The translations under genes and the position numbers were made by a program. 32,000 bases of DNA from Propionibacteriaceae bacterium (lineage in GTDB: Bacteria; Actinomycetota; Actinomycetes; Propionibacteriales; Propionibacteriaceae), in contig JAIRQE010000021.1 in NCBI GenBank assembly GCA_031256725.1, positions 30,001 through 62,000 on the forward strand, given 5' to 3'. Shown here one piece after another: positions 1 to 24,681 of this stretch. The notes beneath the pieces are model-generated. The model ran no database searches, was not told the origin of the DNA, and was given only the letters and a program-made list of their open reading frames with translations. Every line of letters starts with the position of its first letter. Position 1 is the first letter of the stretch.

Positions 1-307
1 GGAGTGTAGCAATCACTGTGACGATGATGACTGTGAAGGCGGCAGGGAGGAGGCGCCGTACTCTTCTTCCCCAGAAAACGACGAGGTCGTGAGCGCGTCG
101 CGGAGGTTTGGTGAGGAGGTGTGTGGTGATCAGGAAGCCCGAGATGACGAAGAAGATGTCGACACCGACGAAGCCACCTTTCACGTTGGTGGGCCAGAAG
201 TGGTACACAAGAACAAGGGTCACCGCGAGTGCTCGCATCCACTGGATGTCGATCCGTGCGGTGTGAGTGTCAGTGGGCTTTACGCCTTCATTAGTTCTTG
301 AGACCAT
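1..307 (-). CDS. Acyltransferase family 3 (OafA/YrhL-like O-acyltransferase), N-terminal part; the 3' end lies beyond the window edge
   Basis: Absent from the ORF track because it runs off the edge. Minus-strand translation from ATG (complement 305-307) gives MVSRTNEGVKPTDTHTARIDIQWMRALAVTLVLVYHFWPTNVKGGFVGVDIFFVISGFLITTHLL...FWGRRVRRLLPA. This carries the typical acyltransferase_3 N-terminal motifs (RALAV..V..H; GG..GVD.FFV.SGFLIT; F..RR..RL.PA). The start overlaps the stop of the upstream gene by 17 nt. Confidence 0.8.
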   Translation of the reverse strand, partial: MVSRTNEGVKPTDTHTARIDIQWMRALAVTLVLVYHFWPTNVKGGFVGVDIFFVISGFLITTHLLTKPPRRAHDLVVFWGRRVRRLLPAAFTVIIVTVIATL

Positions 308-1457
308 AGCAGTGGTTCTCAATAATACCGGCTAGGCGGACAGTGTTCCCCGTTCTGTGAACCACCTCCAGATTCGTGAAATCATGGATGGCTTTCAGGT
401 CGAAATCCTCGTTGTCGATGGCGGTGAACAGAGCGTGAGCATCAGTGTACTGCTGGGCTGGGAAATCAGATGGTGAGGTGAAGAAGCCCCGGATTTCATC
501 ATATCCGTCAGCATCCAAATGATAGAAGAAGACGGGTTTGCCAAGTACCAACATCTCGTAAGTGATGGCGGAATAGTCGGTGATGAGGTAATCGGAGACG
601 GTCAGCACTTCCAGTGTGGAGTACCCGTTGATCTGGATGGCCCGGGGATCTTCGATAGTGAGTTTCGTGAGGGGATGTACTTTGATGATGAGGTTGTACC
701 TCTCGAAATCCACAGCTTCAATAAGGTGATCGATCTCTTCATGAACGGTTTCACCACGACGAAAAGTCGGGGCGAAAGTAATGGTCTTCTTGTCGCCAAG
801 TTCCGGATGTTCTGTCCGTATTTTCCCTTGTATTTCAGAGTTTTTCTCCGAATCGCTGAGGAGGTCCACGCGGGGTAGTGAAATCACTGAAACCGTGGAA
901 GGATCACAGTTGAAGGCCTGAGCAAAGTTGTGAACACTGCGTTCGCCACTGGCAATAACGAGGTCGTAGTTTTCGTGCATATGCATGAGCTGGGCCAACT
1001 CAAAGCTGGTGAGTCCTCGTCCTCCTGAACGAGCCTCCGCCTTATCGAGTATGGCGTACCCAAATTTCTTGAAGGACCCGAGCGCGTGCCAGATCTGGAT
1101 TACTTGGAGTGTTTTCTTGTGTGTGAAGATGCAGACGGGAATGCAGTAGGTATCAAGGACAACAGTCTTGCTGGTTGCGATATGGTACGCCTGGGTGAGC
1201 AGATGGAAGAGGTACCCAACGATTGCGGGTCCTTTGGGTACTGGCCGACACAGTAGCTTCACCTCCAAGTCAGGCTGATCACAGTGAAGCTGGTCGATCA
1301 GGAGAGTGAAATCCAGGGGTACATCCCAGCCTTGACGGCTGATAAAGATTACCTTGTTGCGGGTCGGGAAGAGCTTGATCGCAGCGTACAAAGCTCGTGC
1401 AGAACCTATGGCCACCTTGATGCCTAGGATCATGATTCCGCGCTGGAGCTTTTTCAC
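291..1457 (-). CDS. CDP-glycerol/alditol-phosphate glycerophosphotransferase, TagB/TagF family (388 aa)
   Basis: Motifs IQIWHALGSFKKFG, FAPTFRRG, KVHPL and LITDYSAITYEMLVLGKPVFFY are typical of the TagB/TagF (Glyphos_transf) family. GTG start preceded by AGGAG. Size is similar to TagB-type enzymes. Confidence 0.85.
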   Translation of the reverse strand: MKKLQRGIMILGIKVAIGSARALYAAIKLFPTRNKVIFISRQGWDVPLDFTLLIDQLHCDQPDLEVKLLCRPVPKGPAIVGYLFHLLTQAYHIATSKTVVLDTYCIPVCIFTHKKTLQVIQIWHALGSFKKFGYAILDKAEARSGGRGLTSFELAQLMHMHENYDLVIASGERSVHNFAQAFNCDPSTVSVISLPRVDLLSDSEKNSEIQGKIRTEHPELGDKKTITFAPTFRRGETVHEEIDHLIEAVDFERYNLIIKVHPLTKLTIEDPRAIQINGYSTLEVLTVSDYLITDYSAITYEMLVLGKPVFFYHLDADGYDEIRGFFTSPSDFPAQQYTDAHALFTAIDNEDFDLKAIHDFTNLEVVHRTGNTVRLAGIIENHCYGLKN

Positions 1458-6146: not shown

Positions 6147-7232
6147 CTAGGACCTCCCAAGACGCTTGGCGACCCGTACGACATCAATGGGTAGGCGCAG
6201 GATGTTTAGCACCGTCAGGTTCCTCAGAATCATAGCGCAGAGTTCACCTGCTGCACCTACTGCTCCTTCGCGAAGTTTAGGTAGACGGAAAAATGCTCCG
6301 ACAAGGGGAATCGTATGGAGGTCGCGCACACGATTAAAGGTTTCCTTATCGTAATCTTCGAGCCAGTTTCGTACTGCCTTCAAGGCGGGAACCTGTATAT
6401 CTGGATCCCTGGTGCGTAGAGCCGCATCCACGCGGGCCCAAATATCGCGGTGCATCGCTCGGGCAAGATAACGGTCGAAGAGGGAGTCATCGGCGAGGAT
6501 TGTGCGCGCCATGCGTACCATCTCGAAAAGATCACTGAGGACGACACCAGGTGGCGCTATCACACGGCTTGTGAGGGAAGCCCGCTTATCATCCTGGCAA
6601 CGATAGTGGTAGACATCCTGGTCGACGGTGTGGATCTTCTTAGCGTGAGAGTAGGCGCGCAATACGAAAGGCTGATCCTCTCCCAGACGAATGTGCTCAG
6701 GGAAGAAGGTGGCTTCGATGAGGTCTCTGCGATAGAGCTTCGCCCAGGGGCCAAGGGATTGCATGAGTTCAGGATGGGTGGCCAGGGTTTTGTTTCCAGG
6801 TTCAGTAAGATCGTTGGCAGCGTGGCTGATGGGCCAGACTCCAGTCGAGTTGAAACGTTGAGAATTCCCAGTGATGAGGTCAGCATCATTATCCTTGGCT
6901 GCGGTGTACATCACCTCAAGGGCATCAGGCAGAAGGATGTCATCAGCATCAACAAAACAGATATAGTCACCATCGGCAGATCGGATGCCGTGATTACGAG
7001 CAGCGGACGGACCCTGGTTGTGTTGCCCGACTAACCTGAATCGGGGGTCATCAATCCCAGCACAGATCTCGGCAGTGTTATCGGTGGATCCATCATCAAC
7101 CAAGATGAACTCAATGTTGTTGAGGGTCTGAGCTTGTAAGCCCGCGACAGTTCCACCTATGTACTTTGCAACGTTGTACATCGGCACAATGACACTGACG
7201 ACCGGTTTCGGTGGACTTGCTGCGGCTGTGAT
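6147..7232 (-). CDS. Glycosyltransferase family 2, paralogue 2 of 3; probable non-canonical ATC start (or N-terminally damaged)
   Basis: The track ORF starts at GTG 7187 (MPMYNV...). That would delete the conserved VSVIVP beta-strand present in both paralogues. The frame stays open upstream to TAA at 7257-7259 and encodes ...ITAAASPPKPVVSVIVPMYN, but contains no ATG, GTG or TTG. AGGGAGGGAG lies 5 nt upstream of ATC (complement 7230-7232). Confidence 0.7.
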   Translation of the reverse strand: MTAAASPPKPVVSVIVPMYNVAKYIGGTVAGLQAQTLNNIEFILVDDGSTDNTAEICAGIDDPRFRLVGQHNQGPSAARNHGIRSADGDYICFVDADDILLPDALEVMYTAAKDNDADLITGNSQRFNSTGVWPISHAANDLTEPGNKTLATHPELMQSLGPWAKLYRRDLIEATFFPEHIRLGEDQPFVLRAYSHAKKIHTVDQDVYHYRCQDDKRASLTSRVIAPPGVVLSDLFEMVRMARTILADDSLFDRYLARAMHRDIWARVDAALRTRDPDIQVPALKAVRNWLEDYDKETFNRVRDLHTIPLVGAFFRLPKLREGAVGAAGELCAMILRNLTVLNILRLPIDVVRVAKRLGRS

Positions 7233-7253
7233 AGGTACTCCCTCCCTAGTTTG

Positions 7254-7282
7254 ATGTTAAAACAAGCCTAACTGATTAGCAA
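7254..7282 (-). promoter_or_regulatory. Candidate sigma-70-type promoter for the GT2 gene at 6147-7232
   Basis: The minus strand reads TTGCTA, a 17-nt spacer, then TAACAT, about 10 nt upstream of the strong SD. Hexamer match by eye only. Confidence 0.3.
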
Positions 7283-7286
7283 CTTC

Positions 7287-7309
7287 AATACTGAACTTTA
7301 ATACTGAAC
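7287..7309. repeat. 10-bp direct repeat AATACTGAAC x2 (13-bp period) just upstream of the candidate -35
   Basis: Exact copies at 7287-7296 and 7300-7309 in an AT-rich 96-bp spacer between two GT2 genes. Confidence 0.6.
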
Positions 7310-7328
7310 ATGTCCGAATAGATTTCGA

Positions 7329-8438
7329 TTAACCCCTTTTTCTCTTGAGCATCTTCATTGGTACGCTCACCACAAGGCGACCAACAAAGCTCATAAAAGT
7401 GGTGAGGTTCATCTTGGATAGGAGACTACGAAGAATCCGATAGTAGACTCCGCGTGCCTCATGATGGATCCTGTGAACCTGGGAGAGCAAGCAAGCCAGA
7501 GGATAGGAGTATAAAGCAGGCACCCTGTTGAATTGATCATCATCGAAATGGGTCAGCCAGGTTCCCAAAGAGTTCAGGGCTGTGATCTGAATTCTTGGGT
7601 CCCCAGTTTTCAAAGCGCTCTTGGCTCGCGGCCATACATCGGCGTAAAGCACCCTCGTAAGATAGGCATCCATGAGATCAGGATCCTCAAGAACCTGGGC
7701 GGACAGACGTACCATCTCATAGAGATCCTCAAGAGCCTGGATGGGATTCGTCATAGCAGTCTGTGTGAGGGATTGCGCGCCCTGATTTCGTACCCGATAG
7801 TGGTAGACCACTGCATCCACAGTTACGATAGTTGCCGAGTGAGCTAGAGCAAAGAGTACAAGAGGCTGATCCTCACCCAGGCGAATAGTCTCCGGGAAGA
7901 AGACTCCATCAAGGAGGGAACGGCGGAAGAGCTTGGCGCAGGGGCCAAGGGCATGGATGAGTTCAGGATGGGTTGCGAGGGTTTTGATCCCAGGAGTCGA
8001 AACTTTGTGGCGTGCATAGCTGGGCAGTGGCCAACTGCGATCCCTATCGAAACGCCGAGTATCACCTGTGACCATGTCAGCGCCATGGTCGTGAGCAGCT
8101 TTGTACATCACCTCCAAGGCTGAGGGGTCGAGGCGGTCATCCCCATCAACAAAGCAGATGTACTCACCCTGAGCCAGCTTCAATCCATGGTTACGTGCGG
8201 CAGACGGACCCCGATTTTCCTGGGTGACAAGCCGAAATCGAGGATCCTGGTCGATGGTGGTTTCCACGATCGGCACTGTGTTATCCGTGGAGCCATCGTC
8301 AATCAGGAGGTACTCAACCCCCTCCAGTTTCTGGGCTTTGAGGGAGTCCAGGGTCTCAGCTATGTACAGGGAAAGGTTGTACATAGGTACGATTACGCTC
8401 ACTGAAGGGGCGATGCGAGGATTCACCATATCGCTCAT
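7329..8438 (-). CDS. Glycosyltransferase family 2, paralogue 3 of 3
   Basis: VSVIVPMYNLSLYI...LLIDDGSTDNT, VDGDD and GPCAKLFRRSLLDGVFFPETIRLGEDQPLVL. Basic C-terminal tail. Confidence 0.85.
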   Translation of the reverse strand: MSDMVNPRIAPSVSVIVPMYNLSLYIAETLDSLKAQKLEGVEYLLIDDGSTDNTVPIVETTIDQDPRFRLVTQENRGPSAARNHGLKLAQGEYICFVDGDDRLDPSALEVMYKAAHDHGADMVTGDTRRFDRDRSWPLPSYARHKVSTPGIKTLATHPELIHALGPCAKLFRRSLLDGVFFPETIRLGEDQPLVLFALAHSATIVTVDAVVYHYRVRNQGAQSLTQTAMTNPIQALEDLYEMVRLSAQVLEDPDLMDAYLTRVLYADVWPRAKSALKTGDPRIQITALNSLGTWLTHFDDDQFNRVPALYSYPLACLLSQVHRIHHEARGVYYRILRSLLSKMNLTTFMSFVGRLVVSVPMKMLKRKRG

Positions 8439-8456: not shown

Positions 8457-9662
8457 TCAGGGTAAGGGCAGCTCCAAGGGAGCGTCGGGGCGCAGGTGTG
8501 GATGCCACTGTGACAGGAATTCCAAAACCGCGTAGAGCTCCTTCCAATCCTTGGCACTGTAGTGCTGAATTCCGGCTTCCTCCCATACATCAAGTGCATG
8601 GTCGCGGATGAAGTGTGGAACATAGGGAAGGAACTGAGGGTTCAGTTTCTCCATGAAATCCAGGGAAACACTGTCAGCCATAGCCACGTAAGATTCAGGG
8701 ATTCCTCTGTTGAGAATCTGAGCAGCCTCCATCCCAACATATTTCACGAAGTAGAGGGAGAATAGGTCGATGAGATGAGTCTCCCCGAAGTTGAATGGCG
8801 TAATGGGGGGCGTGAGTCCATCCATAGTGAAGTCGATGCCCTTGTATTTCATGTCGAAGACCTTCAAGAACAACTGCTTCTGATAGAGCTTGGAGTCACC
8901 GACATTAGCAAGGGACTTCAGTGACTTCTCGAGCAGTTCTGGGTAGGTACGATAGGTCAACAATGCCATGGTCGTACCCAGCATTCCGAAACTCAGCATG
9001 TTCAAATTCCTAATCCCCGCATAGATAAACGGCGTTGGATAACAGAAATTGCGCTGGGAAAAAAACCAATTCTTTTGGCTCCACAGATCCTCAAGCGGAG
9101 TTCCAAATGCGTGGTAGTCAGTTCCTAACAACTCTTTGTAGAGCAATGAGGCGATGCCCATGAAAACCCCAGTGTTGGCGTTGAGCTTCAGGTCTACCAG
9201 ATTCGTAGTAACAATATAGGGTGAGAATTCTTCAAAGAAAACGCGCTCTCGAGCAAAGAGTCCGCCATAGTCAAGAGAAACTAAAGAGATGTCGTCTGGT
9301 AGAAGGGCTTTCACTGACAGAGAGTCAAGTCCACCAGAGAAGTTAAGTGTCACCTTATTTGGTGTGGTGGGAAAGGTTGGTGCTGTTGAAGTTATTGACT
9401 TTACGGAAGGCCGAATCCCTGTAAAGGAGTGAATCTTGGACAGTGTATGTTCACTGACAGGCAGGTCGATATGCACGTCGTCATAAGCCTTGCCAAAGAG
9501 GGTAGATAGAGCCAATGCAATGATGTCATCATGAGGCCGGTGAGCGTGGCTGAGTTTGAAGTACAACGGTGACTCCGTTTTGCGAAGTTTCCCACGCTTC
9601 ACGAAAACGCAGGAAATCTCATTTTCTGTGATAGTGAAATCATTAAATCTAACTCGTGTCAT
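8457..9662 (-). CDS. Uncharacterised PP-loop (SGGxDS) ATP-pyrophosphatase-superfamily protein with a QueC/ExsB-like core
   Basis: KVTLNFSGGLDSLSVKALL is a beta-strand, SGGLDS, helix arrangement. About 15 residues later comes VSLDYGG, which parallels QueC SGGQDS...FDYGQ. Then NTGVFMGIASLLY...GTPLED parallels QueC NTFVPGRN...ETD. The ~95-aa N-terminal and ~170-aa C-terminal regions match nothing I recognise. Confidence 0.55.
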   Translation of the reverse strand: MTRVRFNDFTITENEISCVFVKRGKLRKTESPLYFKLSHAHRPHDDIIALALSTLFGKAYDDVHIDLPVSEHTLSKIHSFTGIRPSVKSITSTAPTFPTTPNKVTLNFSGGLDSLSVKALLPDDISLVSLDYGGLFARERVFFEEFSPYIVTTNLVDLKLNANTGVFMGIASLLYKELLGTDYHAFGTPLEDLWSQKNWFFSQRNFCYPTPFIYAGIRNLNMLSFGMLGTTMALLTYRTYPELLEKSLKSLANVGDSKLYQKQLFLKVFDMKYKGIDFTMDGLTPPITPFNFGETHLIDLFSLYFVKYVGMEAAQILNRGIPESYVAMADSVSLDFMEKLNPQFLPYVPHFIRDHALDVWEEAGIQHYSAKDWKELYAVLEFLSQWHPHLRPDAPLELPLP

Positions 9663-9746
9663 ATCATTCCTCTTTCGACGGGATACTAATGGGAATCATA
9701 GTACATAATCAAGAAAAAACTAGAAAACAGGCGGAGTTTCGCCATG

Positions 9747-11849
9747 TCAAACGGTGGTTGGAGGTACTAGCGACAGAATAAACTGCAACCCACATGATAT
9801 ATGAGCAGCATCACCAGCATGTGAGGTCAAGTCTAGAGGACGCTGACTCAATGGTGATCCAGGCTCAATAATGCCCCAAATCTTAACCCCCAAACTGGAA
9901 TAGTCAGCATACTTTGATGGAAGGTAGGGGTTCGTGCCATGGATATCGCTGACTTGAGCATCCGGCACAATTAACCAGTCCATGGATCGAGCGATAGACA
10001 CGAACTTTACATAGTTGACATAGCGATTGACCTCCACGCAGGACTGCAATCCATAGTGATGGACATTGGAACGAACACTGGACAATTGGCGAGATGGGAC
10101 ATACAAATGCACCATAACCCTGATGCGTACATCATCAGGTAACTCGCGAAGACTGGTCAACACATCGTCAACGCCACGCTTGGGGTAGACCCACCCGAAG
10201 TACCCAAGATGAATGCGCCCATCCTGGTTGCGAGGAACTGGTGGTGCAGCCTCAAGGATGTGATCTGGTACCCCAGGATGAGGGATCACCACGCAGTGTT
10301 CCCGCGCTCGCTGACGTAAAGCCATGTCAGGTACCAATGACAACATCAAATCACGTTGATTTTCATTAGTGAAAATGATCTGATCAGCAAGGGCATAGGT
10401 GATCCACTCGATCCACTCGTGGATTGTGCGAGCCGCTGATAGATCGAAACCAGCGAGGCGAACCTGATCGTCAATCTCGTGGCGTTCCAGAAAATCCCCC
10501 AAGGGACCATCTTTGAGTGTTCCATTGATATTGATCGACACCGGATCAGAGAACTCCGCAATCCATCTAATCTCGGGACGGCGTACCTTGATCAGCGCAG
10601 CGAGACCATGTGAGAAGGGCCAATGCACCCGAGAATAGAGTTTCTTGTAAGGACGTGTACGATCCTTCTCCAGCCCAGCCCATTGTCGAGCACCCTCACT
10701 ACAGAATCTGGCTAACCCTTCCCAGGTAGATGAACGTGGAGCCCCATCAATGCGGACAAACTTCCCACGAAGATGGGAGTCGATCCGATGTGTCGAGGTG
10801 TCAATATCGCGAATTCCTGTCATTGAATGGGTGATGATGTCGAAGGGTTCATCCCAGTTGGCTAGGCGTTTTGCGGCAGTGATGGCAGATGCATCGTTGT
10901 AGGGAGTATAGGTGTAGCATGCCGCAAGTGTTGGGGCAGCCCTGTGATTGAAAATCTCTGTTTGCGCAGGGGTCTGGAATTTGAGAATACGCCCACGTAG
11001 TTCCTCGAAGCGATCAGGATGGTCATAGGCAGCATCCCCCAACAAGCCAATTTGGCCACGGATAGAGCGGTGAACCAAGGATCGCAGACGCCATGGCACC
11101 TTCTTCAGTCCCAGAAGGATGTCGATGACACGGAAACGACCAGTGATGAAGTTCTCATCGATTCGTCGAGAGAGTGACCCTGTTCGTACTAGTCGATAGT
11201 AGAAAGCCTTCTCACTAATGCGGGGGATGTAGACCTTCAAGCGATTGCGAGTGACCACTTGAAGCCAGAAGACCACATCCAAGCCGGAATCAATCGTCTC
11301 GTCGTAGCCCACCTCGCGGGCCAACAGTGTCGACACTGCCTTACCAGAATTCGCTGACTCCACCCAGACCTTGCGTGCTGAGATTAGCTTGCCCGCAAAG
11401 GGTGTCATGCGTCGACACAGATAGTTATTGAATCTCCGACTTGGTTCGCTGGGGTTCTCGGCCACATCACAGATATAGGTCATGACAACCCTCTTTGGTG
11501 CGCAATGGGTCAACAGAGTCTCCAGATAGCTAGGCGACACCCAGTCATCGTCGTCGATGTTGGTGAAATACTCTTTCGTGGCTGCCGCCAATCCTATGTT
11601 TGTACTGAGAGAAATCCCTGGTTTCTCGCTGTGAAGCACCCGAATAATGAGATCGGGGTGTTGTTCTTGGAAGGAGGCGATCAGAGCAGTGGTACCGTCG
11701 TCCCCACCGTTAACACAACACAGGATTTCGAATAGGGAGCGATCGAGGGTTTGGGCAGCCAGGCTAGTAAGAGCCTTCGAGATACGGTTCACGCCCTTGA
11801 ATGTGGGCATGACAACGGTGATTCCTCGCTCCAACTGTTCGCTACCCAT
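9747..11849 (-). CDS. Two-domain glycosyltransferase: N-terminal GT2 (GT-A) fused to a C-terminal GT-B/GT4-like domain (700 aa), copy 1
   Basis: N-terminal domain: ITVVMPTFKG...LCCVNGGDDGT and NIDDDDW (DxD). C-terminal domain: HLGYFGWVYPKRG and NPYLPSKYADYSSLGVKIWG, which resemble the GT4 (WbuB-like) PSK-x-x-E/D-Y-x-x-x-G motif. About 55-60% identical by eye to 12277-14355. Confidence 0.75.
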   Translation of the reverse strand: MGSEQLERGITVVMPTFKGVNRISKALTSLAAQTLDRSLFEILCCVNGGDDGTTALIASFQEQHPDLIIRVLHSEKPGISLSTNIGLAAATKEYFTNIDDDDWVSPSYLETLLTHCAPKRVVMTYICDVAENPSEPSRRFNNYLCRRMTPFAGKLISARKVWVESANSGKAVSTLLAREVGYDETIDSGLDVVFWLQVVTRNRLKVYIPRISEKAFYYRLVRTGSLSRRIDENFITGRFRVIDILLGLKKVPWRLRSLVHRSIRGQIGLLGDAAYDHPDRFEELRGRILKFQTPAQTEIFNHRAAPTLAACYTYTPYNDASAITAAKRLANWDEPFDIITHSMTGIRDIDTSTHRIDSHLRGKFVRIDGAPRSSTWEGLARFCSEGARQWAGLEKDRTRPYKKLYSRVHWPFSHGLAALIKVRRPEIRWIAEFSDPVSININGTLKDGPLGDFLERHEIDDQVRLAGFDLSAARTIHEWIEWITYALADQIIFTNENQRDLMLSLVPDMALRQRAREHCVVIPHPGVPDHILEAAPPVPRNQDGRIHLGYFGWVYPKRGVDDVLTSLRELPDDVRIRVMVHLYVPSRQLSSVRSNVHHYGLQSCVEVNRYVNYVKFVSIARSMDWLIVPDAQVSDIHGTNPYLPSKYADYSSLGVKIWGIIEPGSPLSQRPLDLTSHAGDAAHISCGLQFILSLVPPTTV

Positions 11850-11854
11850 AGTGC

Positions 11855-12193
11855 TTATCTCTTGGTACTGAGCGACTGTACCTGGAGGTTCAGGTCGGCA
11901 ACTTCTAGTGTTAAATTGCTGATTGTTTCCACTAGTATGCCCGTGTCGGCGGTGATCCCTGCTTTACGCTTTTCATCCCAGGCATGCTTCTCCACGATCC
12001 ACCAGATGCGTACTGTGAAAAGCCCAGCAAGACCAGCCAGAAATGCGAGCCAGAGGTTGGATGTTGCCAGATAGGCCAAGACCCCAGCTGCGAGCATTCC
12101 TAGCCCGACTATACCGAGAGGTACCAGAGTACTACCAGTGGGATTCTTGAGTAGTTTTCGGATCAGATTCTTGCCATTGCTCACCACTGACAT
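11855..12193 (-). CDS. Small membrane protein: 2 TM helices plus a cytoplasmic heptad-like C-terminal tail (112 aa), copy 1
   Basis: TM hairpin LVPLGIVGLGMLAAGVLAYLA / LWLAFLAGLAGLFTVRIWWIV, then EKHAWDEKRK and ...ISNLTLEVADLNLQVQSLSTKR. AGGAGG lies 6 nt before the ATG. The stop is 5 nt before the GT fusion start. Paralogue at 14362-14685. Confidence 0.7.
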   Translation of the reverse strand: MSVVSNGKNLIRKLLKNPTGSTLVPLGIVGLGMLAAGVLAYLATSNLWLAFLAGLAGLFTVRIWWIVEKHAWDEKRKAGITADTGILVETISNLTLEVADLNLQVQSLSTKR

Positions 12194-12244
12194 CTGCCAC
12201 CTCCTGAGTTGTCGGTGTCACAGGCGAGTTCACCGATTCGCTGA

Positions 12245-12253
12245 ATTCTAGCA
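12245..12253 (-). promoter_or_regulatory. Candidate extended -10 element (TGCTAGAAT) upstream of module copy 1
   Basis: The minus strand reads TGCTAGAAT (TGn + TAnnnT) about 50 nt upstream of the ATG at 12193, inside the 83-bp spacer between the two modules. No convincing -35. Confidence 0.25.
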
Positions 12254-12276
12254 GTTGGGGTGGGGGTTCCCGGGTC

Positions 12277-14355
12277 TCATTCGGCGATGATCTGCCGTAG
12301 GGCGGCCAGGGCTTCAGTACAGTCGCCAGCTTCAGTACTCAAATCGAGATGACTGTGACTCAATGGGCTTCCTGGTTCTATAAGACCCCAGATTTTGATC
12401 CCTAATGAGCTATAGTCAGCGTATTTGGAAGGTAGATAAGGGTTACTACCCAGATCGGCTGTGACTAGGGAGTCTGCAACCAGAAGCCAGTCCATTGTCC
12501 TCGCGATGCGAACAAATTCCATGTAGTTAACGTACTGGTGAACCTTGACACTGGTATCAAGGTGTTGATGGTGGATTAGGTGGCGTACCTCATTGAGTTG
12601 GTGGTGGGGAATGAACATGTGAACGCAGACCTTTCTACGCTCAGATTTGGGCATCGCTGTCAAAGCATCAAGAATCTCACCGACCCCACGTTTGGCATAG
12701 AACCATCCAAAATACCCAATGTGCTTGCGGCCATCATTGATTGCAGGTAGATCTTCCACAGCATCTAGGATCTGCTGTGGTACCCCAGGATGAGGGATGG
12801 CCACAGAGATCTTTCGAACACGATCAGCCAATTCCGAATGTGGAATGCGTGAGATCATATACGACATCTGATTATCGTTGGTGAAGATAATCTGATCAGC
12901 CAAGGCATAAGCCACCCATTCCAGCCATTCGTTGGCCGTACGCGCGCCTGCGAGGTCGAAGCCCTGCTTGGCCACGCGTTTTTCGATCTTCTTCCGCTCG
13001 GGGAAATCACCAAGTACTCCGGGACGCAACTCTCCCTTGATGTCGACTGATAGGGGATCGGAGAACTCTGCGATCCAATAGATGCTGGGTTGCTTGACTT
13101 TGATAAAGGCTGCTAACGCGTGAGAGAAAGGCCATTGAACCCTGCTGTAGAGTTTCTTGTACGGTGGGCGGTCGCTTTGCAGGTTCTTCCATGCGGCAGC
13201 ACCCTCATGACAGAAGTGTGCCATTCCTGCAGCACTATTGGTGGAGGGAGTTCCCTCAACAGTGATGCATTGCCCACGAAGGTGTGCATCAATGAGATTT
13301 GTTGATCGATCAAATTGACGAAGTTTGCCAAAAGAATGCGTAATGATATCGAATGGCTCCCCCATCTCAGCGAGGCGCTTTGCTGCTGTGATCGCAGAGG
13401 CATCGTTGTAAGGAGTGTAGACATAGCATATAGCAAGGGTTGTTGCTGCTTTGTGGTTAAAGATTGCAGTACGTTCAGGGATTGCGATCTGTTGCACGTG
13501 GTCAGCCAGTTCCTGGTACCTGTCGGGCCACTCAAACCCCACCGCACCAAGGTGGCCAATCTGACCGCCAATAGAATTGGATATCAATGTAGAGTACCGA
13601 GGATAGAGTTTTTCGAGACGCTGAAGTCTCTCAATGACGACAAAGCGATTAGTGAGAAACTCTTCATCAATCGAACGTGACATTGATTCTGGGCGAACAT
13701 GACGGTAGTAAATTGCGTGGTCAATAATAGAAAGAACATGGACACGTAAGGAGTTACGAGTCACCAGTTCTGTCCAGAAGACCACATCAAGACCTGAAGT
13801 GATCTCCACGTCATAGAGGACCTCTAGAGCCAGGCGAGTCGAAGCAGCTTTAGCACCATCAGCCGAACCCACGGGGACATCATTGGCGGTCACAGTCTGC
13901 CCTGCGAAAGGAAAGGTTGCGATATTGAGGTAGTTATCAAACCTGCCTGTGGGCTGGTCGACCTCCTCTGGAATATTGCATACATAGGTCATTACCACGG
14001 TATTTTCGCGGCAATGGGCCAGCAGTGATTCGAGGTAGCGGGGCGAGATCCAGTCGTCGTCGTCCACATTGGTGAAGTAGGAAAATTGTGCCTGGTGGAA
14101 TCCAAGATTTCGGGCTCGCCCAAGGCCTGGAACCTCGCTATGAAGGATGCGTATCCCCAGATTTGGATGGCGATCCATAAAGGCAGTGATCAGAGCTTCA
14201 GTGCCATCTTCTGGCCCATTGAGGCAGCACAACACCTCAAACTGGGATCTATCGAGGGTTTGTGTCGTCAGACACTCGAGTAGTCGCCCGATTCTGTCAG
14301 CACCCATATAGGTGGCTACGATAACGCTGATCCCCCAGCGCAGATCCTTCGACAC
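12277..14355 (-). CDS. Two-domain glycosyltransferase: GT2 (GT-A) fused to a GT-B/GT4-like domain (692 aa), copy 2
   Basis: ISVIVATYMG...LCCLNGPEDGT, NVDDDDW, HIGYFGWFYAKRG and NPYLPSKYADYSSLGIKIWG. Collinear with 9747-11849 over its full length. Confidence 0.75.
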   Translation of the reverse strand: MSKDLRWGISVIVATYMGADRIGRLLECLTTQTLDRSQFEVLCCLNGPEDGTEALITAFMDRHPNLGIRILHSEVPGLGRARNLGFHQAQFSYFTNVDDDDWISPRYLESLLAHCRENTVVMTYVCNIPEEVDQPTGRFDNYLNIATFPFAGQTVTANDVPVGSADGAKAASTRLALEVLYDVEITSGLDVVFWTELVTRNSLRVHVLSIIDHAIYYRHVRPESMSRSIDEEFLTNRFVVIERLQRLEKLYPRYSTLISNSIGGQIGHLGAVGFEWPDRYQELADHVQQIAIPERTAIFNHKAATTLAICYVYTPYNDASAITAAKRLAEMGEPFDIITHSFGKLRQFDRSTNLIDAHLRGQCITVEGTPSTNSAAGMAHFCHEGAAAWKNLQSDRPPYKKLYSRVQWPFSHALAAFIKVKQPSIYWIAEFSDPLSVDIKGELRPGVLGDFPERKKIEKRVAKQGFDLAGARTANEWLEWVAYALADQIIFTNDNQMSYMISRIPHSELADRVRKISVAIPHPGVPQQILDAVEDLPAINDGRKHIGYFGWFYAKRGVGEILDALTAMPKSERRKVCVHMFIPHHQLNEVRHLIHHQHLDTSVKVHQYVNYMEFVRIARTMDWLLVADSLVTADLGSNPYLPSKYADYSSLGIKIWGLIEPGSPLSHSHLDLSTEAGDCTEALAALRQIIAE

Positions 14356-14361
14356 GATAAC

Positions 14362-14685
14362 CTAAGTGGTCTTGTTCGACAGCGCCTGTACCTGGATGTT
14401 CAGGTCTGCAATTTCGAGTGAGAGAACGTTGATTGTTGATACGAGCTGTCCTGCGGAATTCACGATGTTTCCTATCCTCTTCTCGGCTCTGTAGCGACGC
14501 TCAGTAATCCACCAGATTCTCATGAGAATCACAGTGACTATTACTCCTAAGATAGTCAGGAATATGTTGGACGTACCAAGGAAAACGAGTACTCCAGCCA
14601 TGACAACCGTGCTCGCAACAATGGCGATCCACATCTTCGGTGATCGACGCAGCTTCGCCAGGGCATCAAATCCAGGTGCGGACAA
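14362..14685 (-). CDS. Small membrane protein: 2 TM helices plus a heptad-like C-terminal tail, copy 2
   Basis: Shares with copy 1 the N-terminal basic segment (LAKLRRSP vs LIRKLLKNP), GTSN between the TMs, RIWWI(T/V)E after TM2, and L(S/T)LE(I/V)ADLN(I/L)QVQ(A/S)LS. I prefer the TTG start at complement 14683-14685, because GGAGG lies 8 nt upstream within the last codons of wecC. The track start (14700) would overlap wecC. Confidence 0.65.
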   Translation of the reverse strand: MSAPGFDALAKLRRSPKMWIAIVASTVVMAGVLVFLGTSNIFLTILGVIVTVILMRIWWITERRYRAEKRIGNIVNSAGQLVSTINVLSLEIADLNIQVQALSNKTT

Positions 14686-14690
14686 TTGTG

Positions 14691-15926
14691 TTACCTCCAA
14701 GTTCCTCGAGTATCAATGATCGCAACATCCTCACGCAACTTTGGCTCTTCAAGGAACTCCTGATGGTCGACTAGGAGTACCACGATGTCGGCTTGGTTGA
14801 GAGCGGTCTCGTAGTCCACCAACTCCACATTGGGCATCTGAGAAAGCGCAGGTGGTAGTTGTGTGATATTGGGTTCGACCGTGAGAATTCTACCAGCAGG
14901 GAATTGGGCAGAGAGACTTTCAACTACTTCCCTTGCTGGGGAACCACGCAGATCGTCGATATTCGGTTTGAAGGCGAGACCAAGAGCAGCAATGGTTGGG
15001 CTTTCATGACCTCCAAGGCTTGCCTTGACCTTGGCGAGTACCCAACCAGGCTTGGAATCGTTGACTTCACGGGAGACTCTGATGAGGCGGGAGTTTTCGG
15101 GGTCAGCGGCCACAATGAACCACGGATCAACCGCAATGCAGTGTCCGCCCACTCCAGGGCCAGGGCTCAAGATATTCACTCGCGGATGATGGTTGGCGAG
15201 TTCGATGACCTCCCAAACATCCATCCCAAGGTTGTCGCAGATCAGGGAGAGTTCGTTGGCGAAAGCGATGTTGACATCCCTGAAAGAGTTCTCAACACAC
15301 TTGGCCATCTCGGCGGTTGTGGCATCGGTCTCATGGATCTCACCTTTGCAAATGATCCCATAGAGTTCCTTGGCGCGCGTCGTGGCTGAAGGGGTTAACC
15401 CTCCAACAATTCGGTCATTGGAAACGAGTTCTTCGAGAACATGTCCTGGGAGTACACGTTCTGGGCAGTGCGCCACATCAACGAGGAGAGTCCCTTGATC
15501 ATCAAGCAAATCTGGTCGAGCTTCTGAGATCCATACACCGACCAGTTCGCTTGTACCAGGAGGCGAAGTCGATTCAAGTATGACCAATGCCCCAGGGAAC
15601 AAGTGGGGGGCTAAGCCCTGTACTGCTGAATGGATGTAACTCAAATCCGCAGTCTTGTCGGGATTAAAGGGGGTCGGAACGGCGATGATTGTTGCATCAG
15701 CCTTCTCAGGAGTCAATGCTGCTGTGAGATGACCATCGGCGACTACGGCTGAAAGGTGTTCGGCGAGCCCAGCCTCGACGAAAGGCGCTTCACCTTTGTT
15801 AATGGAGTCCACGAACTCGGGTTTGATGTCAACACCGAAAACCCGTAAACCGTGTTCAGCGAAGACAATGGCCGTGGGCAAACCGGTATAACCAAGGCCC
15901 ATGACACATAACGTACTCATCGTCAT
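14691..15926 (-). CDS. wecC: UDP-N-acetyl-D-mannosamine dehydrogenase
   Basis: N-terminal LCVMGLGYTGLPTAIVFAEHG (NAD fold), INKGE, and GGHCIAVDPWFI, which matches the WecC/Cap5O signature. The start is chosen at the ATG with GAAGGG 8 nt upstream; the track start GTG 15935 is also possible. Confidence 0.85.
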   Translation of the reverse strand: MTMSTLCVMGLGYTGLPTAIVFAEHGLRVFGVDIKPEFVDSINKGEAPFVEAGLAEHLSAVVADGHLTAALTPEKADATIIAVPTPFNPDKTADLSYIHSAVQGLAPHLFPGALVILESTSPPGTSELVGVWISEARPDLLDDQGTLLVDVAHCPERVLPGHVLEELVSNDRIVGGLTPSATTRAKELYGIICKGEIHETDATTAEMAKCVENSFRDVNIAFANELSLICDNLGMDVWEVIELANHHPRVNILSPGPGVGGHCIAVDPWFIVAADPENSRLIRVSREVNDSKPGWVLAKVKASLGGHESPTIAALGLAFKPNIDDLRGSPAREVVESLSAQFPAGRILTVEPNITQLPPALSQMPNVELVDYETALNQADIVVLLVDHQEFLEEPKLREDVAIIDTRGTWR

Positions 15927-16014
15927 CAGATGCACCCTTCATTGTTTGGCACCACGTCTCCCAAATGAGGAGTTAGGTTACTGATCGCGCCAGTCTATCA
16001 GTACGGGGTTATCT

Positions 16015-17163
16015 CTAGACTGGTGTCCCTACCGCAAGCCATTGGCGAATCGCATCAAGAGTCTGATGGGCGGCCGTACCATCTCCATAGGGATTCTCGG
16101 CATGAGCCATCCGTGCATACTCGCCTGCATCGTGGAGGAGTGCGGTCGCCCTTGTCACAATCAGATCCTCATTGTGACCCACGAGTTCCGCCGTACCCGC
16201 AGCAACCCCTTCTGGTCTTTCGGTGTCTTCACGGAGTACCAACACAGGCTTTCCAAGAGCTGGTCCTTCTTCCTGGAGGCCACCAGAATCGGTGAGAAGG
16301 ATCTTCACACGAGCCATGAGTTTGGCCATTTCGAAGTACCCCAGTGGCTCAGTCAGAATCACATTGGGGAGGTCCTCTAGTACTGGAACGAAAAATTCCC
16401 GGACTGCGGGGTTCGCGTGCATGGGGAAGACGAAATATGTCTCGGGTTCCTGGATGGCGAGGCGGCGAAGAGCCTTGGCAATCTCCCGCATAGGATCACC
16501 CCAGGATTCGCGGCGATGGGAGGTAACCAAAACCAGGGGACGATCCCCTGTGATGAGGGAAGCAATGGTGGGATCGCTTACCTCAATCGGCATATCCACC
16601 GCCAGGCGTAGAGCATCAATGACTGGGTTTCCAGTGATGATGATCTTCTCAGAGGGGATTCCACAAGCCAGGAGGTTGTCCCGATTACCTTCGGTAGCCG
16701 CCAAGTGCAGGGTCGCAATCTGGGAGAGTAGACGCCTGTTGCCTTCCTCGGGGAAGGGGGAGGTGATGGATTCTGTACGAAGACCAGCCTCGACGTGTAC
16801 CACAGGTACCTTCTCGTAGAAGGCTGCCAGGCCAGCCGCCATTGCTGAGGTTGTGTCCCCCTGTACGAATACTGCCGCAGGAGGGTTCTTGTGAAGAAGG
16901 GGGGCCAAGCGGGTCATAGTCTTGCCAGCGATCTCGCTGAGGCTCTGCCCATGGGCAAAGATGTCGAGGTTGGCATCTTCATGGATACCGAAACCAGCGT
17001 TGATGGGGGCAACCATATCTGGGTGTTGTCCGGTGAGAACAACGGAACAGTTCATGTCCTCAGCTTCACGGAAAGCACGGATCAGGGGAGCACATTTGAT
17101 GGCTTCCGGACGCGTACCATAGACAACCATCATGGTTGGGTGGTTGTTGTGTGTCGTAGTCAT
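16015..17163 (-). CDS. wecB: UDP-N-acetylglucosamine 2-epimerase (non-hydrolysing)
   Basis: MMVVYGTRPEAIKCAPLI, HVEAGLRT, PFPEEGNRRL and LTDSGGLQEEGPALGKPVLVLREDTERPEG are canonical WecB/MnaA motifs. Confidence 0.9.
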   Translation of the reverse strand: MTTTHNNHPTMMVVYGTRPEAIKCAPLIRAFREAEDMNCSVVLTGQHPDMVAPINAGFGIHEDANLDIFAHGQSLSEIAGKTMTRLAPLLHKNPPAAVFVQGDTTSAMAAGLAAFYEKVPVVHVEAGLRTESITSPFPEEGNRRLLSQIATLHLAATEGNRDNLLACGIPSEKIIITGNPVIDALRLAVDMPIEVSDPTIASLITGDRPLVLVTSHRRESWGDPMREIAKALRRLAIQEPETYFVFPMHANPAVREFFVPVLEDLPNVILTEPLGYFEMAKLMARVKILLTDSGGLQEEGPALGKPVLVLREDTERPEGVAAGTAELVGHNEDLIVTRATALLHDAGEYARMAHAENPYGDGTAAHQTLDAIRQWLAVGTPV

Positions 17164-17169
17164 AGTGGC

Positions 17170-17940
17170 TCAACTAGAAGAGTCTTTAGAGTAATATTCG
17201 ATACCCTCATCAATGGGTCCATCGAATAGGAGTCTACCGTGGTCAATCACAATGGCACGCTTGCAGAACTTGGCTGCCTGATCAAGAGAGTGGGTCACGA
17301 AAAGCATGGTCACATTGTCGCCATTGATGATGTCCTGCATACGAGCCAGACTCTTGGCTGAGAAGCGACGGTCACCCACTGCGAGAACCTCATCAAGGAT
17401 CAGGATGTCAGGCTTGAGCGAAGAGGCGAACGCGAAACCTAGACGGGTACGCATCCCCGTGGAGTAGGTACGCATAGGCTGATCGATGTACTGCCCAACC
17501 TCAGCAAAATCCAGGATCTCGGGCATGATCTCATTGATCTCTGAGGTTGAAAGCCCCCAGAGGTGGCCCCTCAGAATAAGGTTCTCACGACCCGTGAGGA
17601 GTTGGTCGAAGCCGACGGAGAGATCCAGCAACGCGGAGATCCTGCCGTGTACCTCAACTGTTCCAGAGTTGGGGGTACATACCCCTGTGGTGATCTTGAG
17701 GGCCGTACTCTTTCCTGCTCCATTGGAACCCAGGAATGCGACCGATTCCCCACGTTTGATCGTGAAGCTCAAGTCGTTGTTGGCCTCAACTTTTTCGTAC
17801 TTGGTCTTTGGCCACACCGCAGAGAGCAGACGCTGACGATCCGACTTGTAGAGGCGGTAGGTCTTGGTGACATGGGCGAATCTGACCGCAATCGGATTCG
17901 TGGAGTCATTGGTCTGGATGATGGTTGCCTTAGAGGACAT
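17170..17940 (-). CDS. Polysaccharide/teichoic-acid export ABC transporter, ATP-binding protein (TagH/TarH/Wzt-like, short form)
   Basis: Walker A GSNGAGKST, signature YSTGM, Walker B ILILDEVLAVGD and an H-loop (THS). 11-nt overlap with the permease gene. Confidence 0.85.
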   Translation of the reverse strand: MSSKATIIQTNDSTNPIAVRFAHVTKTYRLYKSDRQRLLSAVWPKTKYEKVEANNDLSFTIKRGESVAFLGSNGAGKSTALKITTGVCTPNSGTVEVHGRISALLDLSVGFDQLLTGRENLILRGHLWGLSTSEINEIMPEILDFAEVGQYIDQPMRTYSTGMRTRLGFAFASSLKPDILILDEVLAVGDRRFSAKSLARMQDIINGDNVTMLFVTHSLDQAAKFCKRAIVIDHGRLLFDGPIDEGIEYYSKDSSS

Positions 17941-18739
17941 CGGGTACCTCCGGACCTAGACGATGTTGAACACTGACAGCGAGGATGAACATGACCAGGA
18001 ACACACCTAGGAAGGGGAGCAGAAGTTGGGGTTTGTCCCAGACCCAGTAGGTGTCACACAGGGATGCTCGGAAGCTGGTTACAAAGAATGTGATCGGGTT
18101 GAAAGCCATGACGACTTGAAGCCATGTGATTTCAATATTTCCGACATCGAAAATAATACCCGAGAGCCAGAAGAGTGGGGTGGCTAGGGCTTTGATCAGG
18201 TTGTGGAAGTCTCGACTGATGGCGGACAGGGGCGATGTCAGCATCGACCAGACCACCCAAAAGAAGTACATCAGTATTGCCAAAACCGGAAGTTGTAGAG
18301 CATAAATCGTGAAAGGAACCTTACTGAGAATGATCACAATAAAAACCACGATCTGCGAGATCAGGAAGATAAGGAACTCGGCTACCCCGAAGAAGCTGGA
18401 GATCACTGGAATGGGGAAGCGCATCCGGTTCACGAGGAAGCTGTAGCGAGTGTATACATTCGAGCCTGTGGTCAACATACTCGACATGAAGAACCATGGA
18501 ACAAGGCCCACCGTCAGCCATACGATAAAAGGTATCTCGTCAGCCGAGCTTGCCTCTTTTAGTCCAAGCTTGAGAGCGAACCAAAAGACGAAAACATAGA
18601 CAGAAGGGGTGACAATCAACCAGATCCATCCGAGCGCGGCCCCACGGATCTGCTTCTGGAGTTCGGTCACCGCAAGTCGCAAGATTTGCGAACGCCAAAC
18701 CCAGTTATCACGGAAGATTCCCCGAAATGTTTGAATCAT
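17930..18739 (-). CDS. ABC-2 type polysaccharide/teichoic-acid export permease (TagG-like)
   Basis: 269 aa with about six hydrophobic helices. The N-terminus (WRSQILRLAVTELQKQIRGAALGWIWLIVTP) is typical of ABC-2/TagG permeases. It is the first gene of the long minus-strand locus. Confidence 0.8.
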   Translation of the reverse strand: MIQTFRGIFRDNWVWRSQILRLAVTELQKQIRGAALGWIWLIVTPSVYVFVFWFALKLGLKEASSADEIPFIVWLTVGLVPWFFMSSMLTTGSNVYTRYSFLVNRMRFPIPVISSFFGVAEFLIFLISQIVVFIVIILSKVPFTIYALQLPVLAILMYFFWVVWSMLTSPLSAISRDFHNLIKALATPLFWLSGIIFDVGNIEITWLQVVMAFNPITFFVTSFRASLCDTYWVWDKPQLLLPFLGVFLVMFILAVSVQHRLGPEVPDVL

Positions 18740-21135: not shown

Positions 21136-21180
21136 TACTGCATCTGATACCCGATACCTGCCTAGAAAGAAGTATGAACC

Positions 21181-23862: not shown

Positions 23863-23865
23863 TGA

Positions 23866-23905
23866 GCGGATCAATGAACGCAAGTTCTGTCTTGCATTGA
23901 TTCGC
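23866..23905 (+). other. Imperfect 15-16-bp hairpin immediately after the gyrA stop (possible terminator, attenuator or mRNA-stabilising stem-loop)
   Basis: GCGGATCAATG-AAC-GCAAG / TTCTGT loop / CTTGC-ATTGATTCGC. There is one 3-nt bulge and one G-U pair. No clean U-tract follows, so terminator function is uncertain. Confidence 0.3.
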
Positions 23906-23964
23906 GCAGAGTTTCTCTGAAAACGACCGATTGTGCAACTGTCAATTCAGAAATAGGAGTAGTG

Positions 23965-24681
23965 ATGACTGAAAGTGAGCAGACGGGTTTGGCGGGTTCG
24001 TCCCCTGAACCAACGTCTGAATCCGGGGGGGTCGGCCAGTCGATCACGCAGAGTTTTGTCAACCGCGCAAACAGGCTGAGTAGCGATCCTGAACTCCCGC
24101 TTGACTTGGGGCTGTCCTCGCCTGGATCTGCATCCAACCCACATTCACCTTTAACAAACCCTGACCCCAATCCAGAGAGGATACCTGACATGGCCCCCCC
24201 TACCCTGACGCCCCAGCCGAATCCAACGGCAAAGGTAGCCAAGGGTGAGGTGCATAAGGCATCCCGTCTGCCCAAAGCAAAGACACCACCGCGTCCCAAG
24301 TCTGCTCGTCAAACACGACGTGCGCGCTTGCGGGTATCCCGTGTCGATCCTTGGTCAGTGATGAAAACAGCTCTGCTTTTCGGTGTCGCTGGTTGGATCA
24401 TCTTCATTGTTGCCACCTGGATCGTGTTCACGGTACTCGACATGACCGGTCTTTATGGTGCAATCAACGACACTGTCGCTCAGGTGTTTGCATCCCCAGA
24501 CACTGTTGATCAGTTCCAGGTTGAGACCTACATCAACACCACAAGGGCTACAGCACTCGCTGCCCTCGTTGGTGCCGTAAACGTCGTCATCATCACCGCC
24601 CTGACCACCATCTTTGCCTTCGTGTACAACCTGACTGCAGTAGTCATGGGTGGCATCGAAGTCACCATGGCCGAGGACTAA
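23965..24681 (+). CDS. DUF3566-type conserved actinobacterial membrane protein (Rv0007-like) with a Pro-rich disordered N-terminus
   Basis: C-terminal RLRVSRVDPWSVMKTALLFGVAGWIIFIVATW...GGIEVTMAE matches the DUF3566 pattern. The position directly after gyrA is the conserved actinobacterial synteny. ATG 23965 is preferred (GGAG 5 nt upstream) over GTG 23962. Confidence 0.8.
   Translation: MTESEQTGLAGSSPEPTSESGGVGQSITQSFVNRANRLSSDPELPLDLGLSSPGSASNPHSPLTNPDPNPERIPDMAPPTLTPQPNPTAKVAKGEVHKASRLPKAKTPPRPKSARQTRRARLRVSRVDPWSVMKTALLFGVAGWIIFIVATWIVFTVLDMTGLYGAINDTVAQVFASPDTVDQFQVETYINTTRATALAALVGAVNVVIITALTTIFAFVYNLTAVVMGGIEVTMAED

Follow-up and report, generated by a model that had tools for sequence, protein, structure and literature searches.

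A conserved PP-loop protein family of wall and capsule polymer loci with a probable role in the modification of N-acetylmannosaminuronic acid

PP-loop enzymes activate a carboxylate or carbonyl oxygen by adenylation, with release of pyrophosphate (PPi), and two of their groups, QueC and the nitrile synthetases, act on a carboxylate with free ammonia and no glutaminase. In polysaccharide loci, the PP-loop enzymes WbpG, WbuX and PseA and the AsnB-type WbpS make amidino or amide groups on sugars, and the glucuronamide ligase of the Campylobacter jejuni capsule is an ATP-grasp enzyme that forms amides of uronic acids. Amidated and amino-acid-substituted uronic acids are chemically well documented, with the responsible enzymes (AsnB-type or ATP-grasp) known in few cases. 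In the Haemophilus influenzae type d capsule, N-acetylmannosaminuronic acid bears Ala, Ser or Thr in amide linkage. Here, we bring together homologue searches, structure prediction and comparative genomics for a PP-loop gene in a wall-glycopolymer locus of a Propionibacteriaceae bacterium, carried on a stretch of 32,000 nucleotides that we call the window. The gene is a real member of an unnamed, uncharacterised and conserved family of about 600 representatives that lies outside the Pfam and NCBIfam models, and it is an optional accessory of the operon in which it sits. Its sequence, its predicted structure and the genes that accompany its homologues lead us to propose that the enzyme probably modifies N-acetylmannosaminuronic acid (ManNAcA) chemically in wall and capsule polymer loci.

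The gene is an intact, full-length open reading frame (ORF) with an ATG start that is preceded by the Shine-Dalgarno sequence AAGAGGA, and its homologues can be aligned from residue 1. Its features, and the spacer in front of it, are as follows.

8457–9662, minus strand: PP-loop family gene, 401 residues in three domains (ORF, homologues and AlphaFold2 model)
9378–9662, minus strand: N-terminal domain, residues 1–95, beta-beta-beta-alpha-beta-alpha-beta (DSSP of the model)
9063–9365, minus strand: PP-loop Rossmann-like core, residues ~100–200 (DSSP, Foldseek with a cropped model, hhalign)
9321–9338, minus strand: predicted pyrophosphate-binding loop SGGLDS, residues 109–114 (invariance in 111 sequences)
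9246–9248, minus strand: invariant E139, in an F-x-R-E motif after strand 2 (alignments of 38 and 111 sequences)
8889–8891, minus strand: invariant K258, in the motif S-L-A-x-P-G-E-E-K-x-Y-R-K (alignments of 38 and 111 sequences)
8508–9050, minus strand: all-helical C-terminal domain, residues ~205–385, distantly DUF6395-like (DSSP; sub-threshold PF19932 matches in relatives)
9663–9746, minus strand: 84-bp intergenic spacer, between the PP-loop start and the stop of the upstream gene for a 700-residue glycosyltransferase family 2 (GT2) fusion

The AlphaFold2 model, built with an alignment of 38 sequences and assigned secondary structure with DSSP, is confident over the full length (predicted local distance difference test, pLDDT, of 92.2; predicted template modelling score, pTM, of 0.90) and falls into an alpha/beta N-terminal domain, a beta-alpha-beta core and the all-helical C-terminal domain. 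The core runs through strand 104–107, helix 112–120, strand 126–131, helix 134–146, strand 149–153, helix 165–179 and strand 183–185, and SGGLDS lies where strand 1 meets helix 1. A clear Foldseek result required cropping, for which the alignment was cut to residues 97–300 and the model predicted again. This core matched Bacillus subtilis QueC (3bl5) with an E value of 2.5 × 10−3, a probability of 1.00 and template modelling (TM) scores of 0.48/0.49 over 206 columns, along with TilS bound to ATP and lysine (probability 0.99), the nitrile synthetase ArtA (0.99), TtuA (0.98) and argininosuccinate synthase, ArgG (0.84); other matches were to generic Rossmann-fold proteins, with probabilities of 0.2–0.5. 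The PP-loop Rossmann-like fold is thus predicted, and model and sequence both support membership of the PP-loop ATP pyrophosphatase superfamily; the nearest solved structure is that of QueC.

Profile comparisons reach the same region of the protein. Aligned with hhalign, the family profile pairs its SGGLDS...LVSLDYGG with SGGQDS...CVTFDYGQ of Escherichia coli QueC (39 columns, probability 37%, pairwise E = 3.6 × 10−4) and 22 columns around the motif with TilS, and gives no alignment with E. coli AsnB. In a Pfam scan of 111 family members at E ≤ 10, all matches were weak, and besides the DUF6395 matches described below they comprised QueC in 12 members (with the one mapped match at residues ~101–145; best E among these 12 of 0.0076), ATP_bind_3 in three and Asn_synthase in one. 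The corresponding NCBIfam scan returned scattered weak matches to ArgG-related, TilS, QueC and AsnB models. The N-terminal domain has no known relative, with weak RNase H/UvrC-like Foldseek matches alone (E about 0.15), in agreement with the initial annotation, which had found nothing that either terminal region resembled; this does not hold for the ~170 C-terminal residues, since the helical domain is weakly DUF6395-like in relatives.

A word-indexed search returned 58 relatives of at most 39% identity, and a profile search run exhaustively over 1.84 billion cluster representatives returned 624 at E ≤ 10−3, of which 284 reach E ≤ 10−30. The initial annotation had regarded the gene as an orphan, which these numbers overturn. 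There was no real match of the window protein to Pfam or NCBIfam at E ≤ 10, no informative name among its relatives, no match to PDB sequences at E ≤ 10 in a profile search of the family and no match for the gene among plasmids in a tblastn search. A second search of a named-protein database, with a 111-sequence profile, added no name beyond ‘hypothetical protein’ and a single ‘cyanophycin synthetase’ label of automated origin. Neither the family nor its arrangement of three domains nor its association with glycopolymers appears to have been described, the superfamily and its general chemistry being known; we found no paper mentioning DUF6395, in a literature coverage limited enough that prior work is possible.

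Twelve residues are invariant in the 38 sequences (F108, S109, G110, G111, D113, S114, E139, S250, K258, K262, G293 and D299), and seven are invariant in the 111 sequences, whose mean column identity is 25% (S109, G110, G111, D113, S114, E139 and K258). The textbook PP-loop motif read from the ORF at the outset is therefore conserved among homologues, and the window protein keeps all seven residues. It carries G165, G229 and Q261 where the family has mostly W (84%), E (90%) and R (93%), a combination that is unique among the 111. Column 56, in the N-terminal domain, holds the family's sole conserved cysteine (65%); the window copy is without it, having F56, so that the motif ALSTLCG reads ALSTLFG here.

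At 47.9%, the GC content of the gene is the lowest in the window, where the other genes have 50–57%, which bears out the earlier remark that it is richer in AT than its neighbours. The GC content at third codon positions (56.5%) lies inside the 51–64% range of the neighbours, and the dip is confined to codon positions 1 and 2; it follows from amino-acid composition and not from foreign codon usage, and we rejected it as a sign of horizontal transfer. The spacer is AT-rich with a T-rich run after the upstream stop, as first described, with a GC content of 39%, T-rich on the coding strand and containing UGUUUUCUAGUUUUUUCUUG. A consensus scan of the spacer found no terminator and no promoter-like sites beyond those expected from shuffling, its predicted fold does not stand out (z = −0.76), and both roles were rejected for want of a signal above chance.

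To place the family in its genomic context, we scanned one genome per GTDB species, which yielded 62 loci from Micrococcales, Corynebacterium, Micromonospora, Propionibacteriales, Bacillales, Clostridia, Aeromonas, Stenotrophomonas, Wohlfahrtiimonas, Rhodobacteraceae and a metagenome-assembled genome (MAG) of Methanobacterium. Homologues of window genes within 10 kb were counted over 67 loci, including a few duplicates, and the most frequent conserved partner family is that of the fusion encoded directly upstream in the window (GT2-700).

ABC (ATP-binding cassette) transporter ATPase: 29 of 67 loci
GT2-700 fusion: 28 of 67 loci
UDP-sugar dehydrogenase, mostly 45–61% identical to the WecC of the window: 27 of 67 loci
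MnaA: 25 of 67 loci

De novo clustering of the neighbouring ORFs left this ranking unchanged and added a dual-GT2 protein with an unknown partner of 215 residues, a CgeB-like transferase, a glycosyltransferase of family 4, a rhamnosyl transferase and heparinase II/III-like proteins as further recurrent neighbours. At least one recurrent glycan-type neighbour is present in 44 of the 62 non-redundant loci, and several of the ‘orphan’ loci nonetheless lie in glycan contexts. The order of the gene within loci varies. A GT2-700 homologue stands directly upstream of it in several phyla. In Corynebacterium aquatimens and related contigs, a 700-residue GT2, a permease and an ATPase are followed by the PP-loop gene 1 bp 3′ of the ATPase, with MnaA and a UDP-sugar dehydrogenase nearby; in L072, a dehydrogenase and a 717-residue GT2 precede a PP-loop gene that overlaps the GT2 stop; and in L073, a Gram-negative Kps-type capsule locus, it accompanies Poly_export, Capsule_synth, an epimerase, a dehydrogenase and a 1,067-residue GT2. 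In Corynebacterium dentalis (L062) there are two copies, and a WecC homologue comes directly after each. Five loci have a more distant UDP-sugar dehydrogenase (27–34% identical), in four of them without MnaA, which fits a link to uronic acids. Six of the 20 longer relatives that we scanned carry GT2 domains. Homologues are thus repeatedly linked to glycan loci and, within them, keep company with WecC, MnaA and GT2 fusions of large size. The annotated recurrent neighbour clusters include no glutaminase and no HisH/HisF-like gene, which fits a QueC-type enzyme using free ammonia, and relatives of 490–650 residues hold no glutaminase or other informative domain.

Several other features were observed in these loci. 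The PP-loop gene is duplicated within L013, L023, L062 and L065, and stands in tandem in Epulopiscium and alphaproteobacterial MAGs. Protein L035:3428–5251 and its homologues in L028 and L066, of ~600 residues and without a Pfam match, bear the PP-loop-like variant motif LTLTGGYDSRVS; they occur alongside the PP-loop family in loci of Jeotgalicoccus and Kocuria and, judged by this motif, may be a second, unrelated PP-loop-type enzyme of glycan loci. In Corynebacterium loci and in Paeniglutamicibacter (L056), a gene for an alpha/beta-hydrolase-like protein of 327 residues, with weak Asp2 and pectin-acetylesterase matches, is convergent to the PP-loop gene (L049:11047–12030, minus strand; homologues in L041, L044 and L056). 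As P0152 joins a homologue (residues 376–777) to the PP-loop domain, the hydrolase-like protein is a possible functional partner. At least eight relatives (P0106, P0117, P0207, P0144, P0154, P0176, P0031 and P0039) share a C-terminal extension of ~150 residues (~130–170) with the motif YPNVPGKTxGC and no Pfam or PDB match, which might be a glycan-binding module.

In the window, 14 of the first 15 genes, up to position 18739, lie on the minus strand, the exception being a GT2 gene at 1695–2804 on the plus strand. In transcription order, an ABC-2 permease, a TagH-like ATPase, WecB/MnaA, WecC and two GT2 fusions of ~700 residues lead to the PP-loop gene, which is followed by two GT2 genes, a TarI-like cytidylyltransferase, a short-chain dehydrogenase/reductase, a TarL/TagF-like polymerase and a second TagF-like gene.

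17170–18739, minus strand: TagH/TagG-like ABC-2 exporter, ATPase at 17170–17940 and permease at 17930–18739 (Pfam ABC_tran and ABC2_membrane)
16015–17163, minus strand: WecB/MnaA, UDP-GlcNAc 2-epimerase (TIGR00236, 405.9 bits, cut-off 210)
14691–15935, minus strand: WecC, UDP-ManNAc dehydrogenase (NCBIfam NF008286, 530.5 bits, cut-off 459)
12277–14355, minus strand: tandem GT2-fusion paralogue of 692 residues (55% identity over 691 residues to the 700-residue fusion)
9747–11849, minus strand: GT2 fusion of 700 residues, GT2-700 (Pfam GT2 at residues 11–118 only)
7329–8438, minus strand: downstream GT2 of 369 residues, 18 bp 3′ of the PP-loop gene (Pfam GT2)
291–1457, minus strand: second TagF-like gene, at the end of the minus-strand run

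The TagH-like NCBIfam matches of the ATPase are below cut-off. Both WecB/MnaA and WecC pass theirs, the latter as the initial annotation had read it, and the operon therefore makes UDP-ManNAcA.

An independent ascertainment through the GT2-700 family gave 80 metagenome loci, of which the 17 with at least 8 kb on both sides were counted. WecC-like genes are present in 11 of these, MnaA in 12 and the ABC ATPase in nine, and the PP-loop gene in five (~29%). The closest syntenic locus, L076, has MnaA and WecC (each 71% identical), a single GT2-700 (52–54%), a homologue of the 369-residue GT2 (53%), a TagF-like gene and the permease and ATPase (64–67%). There, GT2-700 is followed ~57 bp on by the 369-residue GT2 homologue, and the PP-loop gene is absent at exactly the position it takes in the window. 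It is thus a presence/absence polymorphism in an otherwise conserved operon. As L076 and the five in 17 indicate, synthesis of the backbone evidently does not depend on it, which speaks for a function in decoration or tuning rather than in core biosynthesis.

Elsewhere in the window, the C-terminal ~450 residues of the GT2-fusion paralogues are without a Pfam match and hold many invariant residues, for example in AEFSDP and NPxLPSK. The tight operon is broken by two long intergenic gaps, 11850–12276 (427 bp) and 14356–14690 (335 bp), with a minus-strand ORF of 112 residues at 11855–12193. In the GT2 ORF at 6147–7328 (GT2_346, minus strand), the called GTG start falls inside the GT2 fold (MPMYN...); the frame is open for 24 codons further 5′, where the expected first strand (VVSVIVPMYN) is encoded but ATG, GTG and TTG are all missing, a reading of the sequence that suggests a non-canonical or lost start codon. 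The genes for gyrB, gyrA and a DUF3566 membrane protein (19078–24681, plus strand) adjoin the wall-polymer locus in an origin-proximal actinobacterial arrangement, and at 90% identity both GyrB and GyrA remain singletons in a collection of 15 billion proteins, which therefore has no close sequenced relative of this organism.

The route that we propose would begin with ATP bound by the SGGxDS loop, a use of ATP that motif and model both suggest. The enzyme would then adenylate a carboxylate, likeliest that at C-6 of ManNAcA, either in UDP-ManNAcA or in the polymer as it grows, with release of PPi, and ammonia, an amine or an amino acid would displace AMP to give a uronamide, neutralising one negative charge on the polymer. 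The host loci, which would make and export a ManNAcA glycopolymer, are centred on WecB/MnaA, WecC, a GT2-fusion polymerase of ~700 residues and an ABC-2 or Kps exporter. Substrate, nucleophile and product are inferred here, as is the use of ATP. That the ManNAcA carboxylate is adenylated and then converted to an amide is the most likely reading, to which we give a probability of roughly 40%; the amidation step is helped by the fact that QueC and the nitrile synthetases need no glutaminase and no glutaminase partner recurs here. That this would be the first QueC-like, glutaminase-independent PP-loop family to edit a cell-envelope glycopolymer, turning the carboxylates of ManNAcA or other uronic acids into amides or amino-acid amides, perhaps on the polymer itself and alongside the polymerase, is a tentative idea that we judge less likely than not.

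The nature of the nucleophile leaves room for a variant in which the enzyme attaches an amino acid to the uronic-acid carboxylate, or amidates the free carboxylate of an amino acid that an ATP-grasp enzyme has already ligated to the polymer. Three of the 20 longer relatives have D-Ala-D-Ala-ligase-like ATP-grasp domains as fusion partners, in L074 the gene immediately after the homologue is of the ATP-grasp type, ATPgrasp_TupA is present in L004/L005, and TilS with ATP and lysine and ArgG are among the structural matches; TilS and ArgG are PP-loop precedents for an amino-acid nucleophile, with the peptidoglycan amidation by MurT/GatD a functional analogy only. Such partners are rare, however (three fusions among ~150 listed relatives, and few neighbours), with none in the window, and we regard this variant as unlikely. 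The known PP-loop members of glycan loci are of the WbpG/WbuX/PseA kind, and an analogue of these would adenylate the acetamido carbonyl of ManNAc or ManNAcA to give an acetamidino group, which would suit the seven loci that have MnaA and no dehydrogenase nearby. Yet neither the window protein nor any of the 111 members matches the NCBIfam model for N-acetyl sugar amidotransferases at E ≤ 10 (which we take to be TIGR03573), no HisH/HisF-type partner recurs in the neighbourhoods, and the nearest structures, QueC and ArtA, activate carboxylates, so that we consider an acetamidino product improbable. We think as little of the chances that the protein is no decorator of repeat units and acts instead as a chain-end cap, a chain-length factor or a coupling factor for export, in a role like that of WbdD in ABC-transporter-dependent O-antigen synthesis. 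The Corynebacterium-type placement 1 bp 3′ of the ABC ATPase gene, a position often taken by terminators, the fusion of PP-loop, methyltransferase and GT2 in P0066 and an extension of unknown fold in at least eight relatives that might bind glycan would all suit such a role; against these stand the variable gene order, the short ABC ATPase of the window (256 residues), which has no extra C-terminal domain to read a cap, and the fact that we know of no PP-loop enzyme that caps glycans.

Two further explanations concern the window copy and the linkage itself. The family could be glycan-linked and its ancestral reaction lost in a decayed or neofunctionalised window copy, which alone among the 111 combines W165G, E229G and R261Q, also has C56F, shares at best ~40% identity with any relative and is dispensable in the syntenic L076. 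The ORF, however, is intact and full length behind a good Shine-Dalgarno sequence, the seven invariant residues are kept, the model is confident and the third-position GC content matches the host operon, leaving such a loss with poor odds. The gene might also be an unrelated hitch-hiker without a glycan role, as the initial annotation had allowed, or a sulfur-transferase of the TtuA/LarE type. The non-glycan contexts of Rhodobacteraceae homologues and the TtuA fold match speak for this pair; linkage conserved across phyla and fusion to GT2 domains speak against a hitch-hiker, which we reject even for an optional accessory, and outside the N-terminal column that the window copy lacks there is no conserved cysteine for sulfur transfer. 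We hold either to be very improbable.

Several observations weigh against carboxylate amidation as a reading of the family and of this copy. The structural match of the core is moderate (E = 2.5 × 10−3, TM below 0.5, pLDDT of the cropped model 79.5), and the full-length model gives no Foldseek match at E ≤ 0.001, its top match being TilS with AMPPNP (E = 0.05), after which come RNase H and UvrC as noise. In sequence, the protein ceases to resemble QueC and TilS after ~40 residues. About 18 loci, among them those of Paracoccus and Sulfitobacter, have no recurrent glycan neighbour, and the Rhodobacteraceae loci are non-glycan contexts. In seven loci MnaA is present and a dehydrogenase is missing within 10 kb. 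A homologue is found in a Micrococcus MAG despite the ManNAcA-Glc teichuronic acid of Micrococcus luteus being reportedly unamidated. Finally, the atypical G165, G229 and Q261 may give the window copy an altered or reduced activity.

Cation binding, the control of autolysins, phage adsorption and resistance to cationic antimicrobials are all governed by how wall and capsule polymers are charged, and the known systems that edit this charge are teichoic-acid D-alanylation and peptidoglycan amidation. The PP-loop family is a concrete candidate for uronic-acid modification, linked across phyla to WecC, MnaA and polymerase genes, and it is found beside glycan genes in Actinobacteria, Firmicutes, Proteobacteria and one archaeal MAG. 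With this, about 600 ‘hypothetical proteins’ gain a pathway context, and the window and L076 provide a natural pair of loci with and without the gene, ready for comparison. If our proposal is right, the gene would represent an optional system that tunes the charge of teichuronic-acid-like polymers and capsules, much as D-alanylation does for teichoic acids.

Among described enzymes, QueC is the closest in structure to the core. Both share SGGxDS and an alignable x-D-Y-G strand motif, and neither has a glutaminase domain or partner. The window protein nonetheless does not match the QueC family hidden Markov models (PF06508 and TIGR00364) at E ≤ 10, and its relatives stay below threshold; the C-x2-C-x2-C zinc site of QueC (residue 197 in E. 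coli QueC) is absent from the family, which has an extra N-terminal domain of ~95 residues and a helical C-terminal domain of ~180. The motifs, with VTLNFSGGLDSLSVKALL at residues 104–121, DYGG at 131, NTGVF at 163 and GTPLED at 187, keep the order and first spacing that had been likened to those of QueC/ExsB at the start (22 residues from SGG to DYG, compared to 25 in E. coli QueC), whereas the later ones, 54 and 78 residues downstream here compared to 84 and ~116 there, are 30–40 residues off. No que genes are among the annotated genes of the window locus, which are of glycan, teichoic-acid and ABC-export types, and recurrent neighbours elsewhere are glycan genes. We therefore reject an identity as QueC, given the sub-threshold models, the missing zinc cysteines and the lack of a que context. 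TilS, ArtA, TtuA and ArgG likewise share the PP-loop fold and motif with the core (Foldseek probabilities 0.84–0.99); compared with TilS and the others, the similarity is confined to the motif region, tRNA-binding domains are absent and the pathway context is another.

DUF6395 (PF19932), a Pfam entry without known function, is weakly matched by 39 of the 111 relatives on the C-terminal helical domain, with a best E value of 2.5 × 10−5. Those of the matches that were inspected singly score 12.6–15.1 bits, compared to a gathering cut-off of 25, and the window protein has none at E ≤ 10. The nearest functional precedent is that of WbpG/WbuX/PseA and WbpS, to which the family has no detectable sequence relationship; a HisH/HisF-like partner is lacking in the window, as among the recurrent neighbours. 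From AsnB-type enzymes it differs by the absence of the Ntn glutaminase domain, its N-terminal domain giving no glutaminase match, and Asn_synthase is weakly matched by a single one of the 111. The ATP-grasp uronamide ligases would likewise yield a uronamide on a capsule polymer, and ATP-grasp domains or genes are fused or adjacent to some relatives; they have another fold and proceed through an acyl phosphate with release of ADP, whereas a PP-loop enzyme would pass through an acyl-adenylate and release AMP and PPi.

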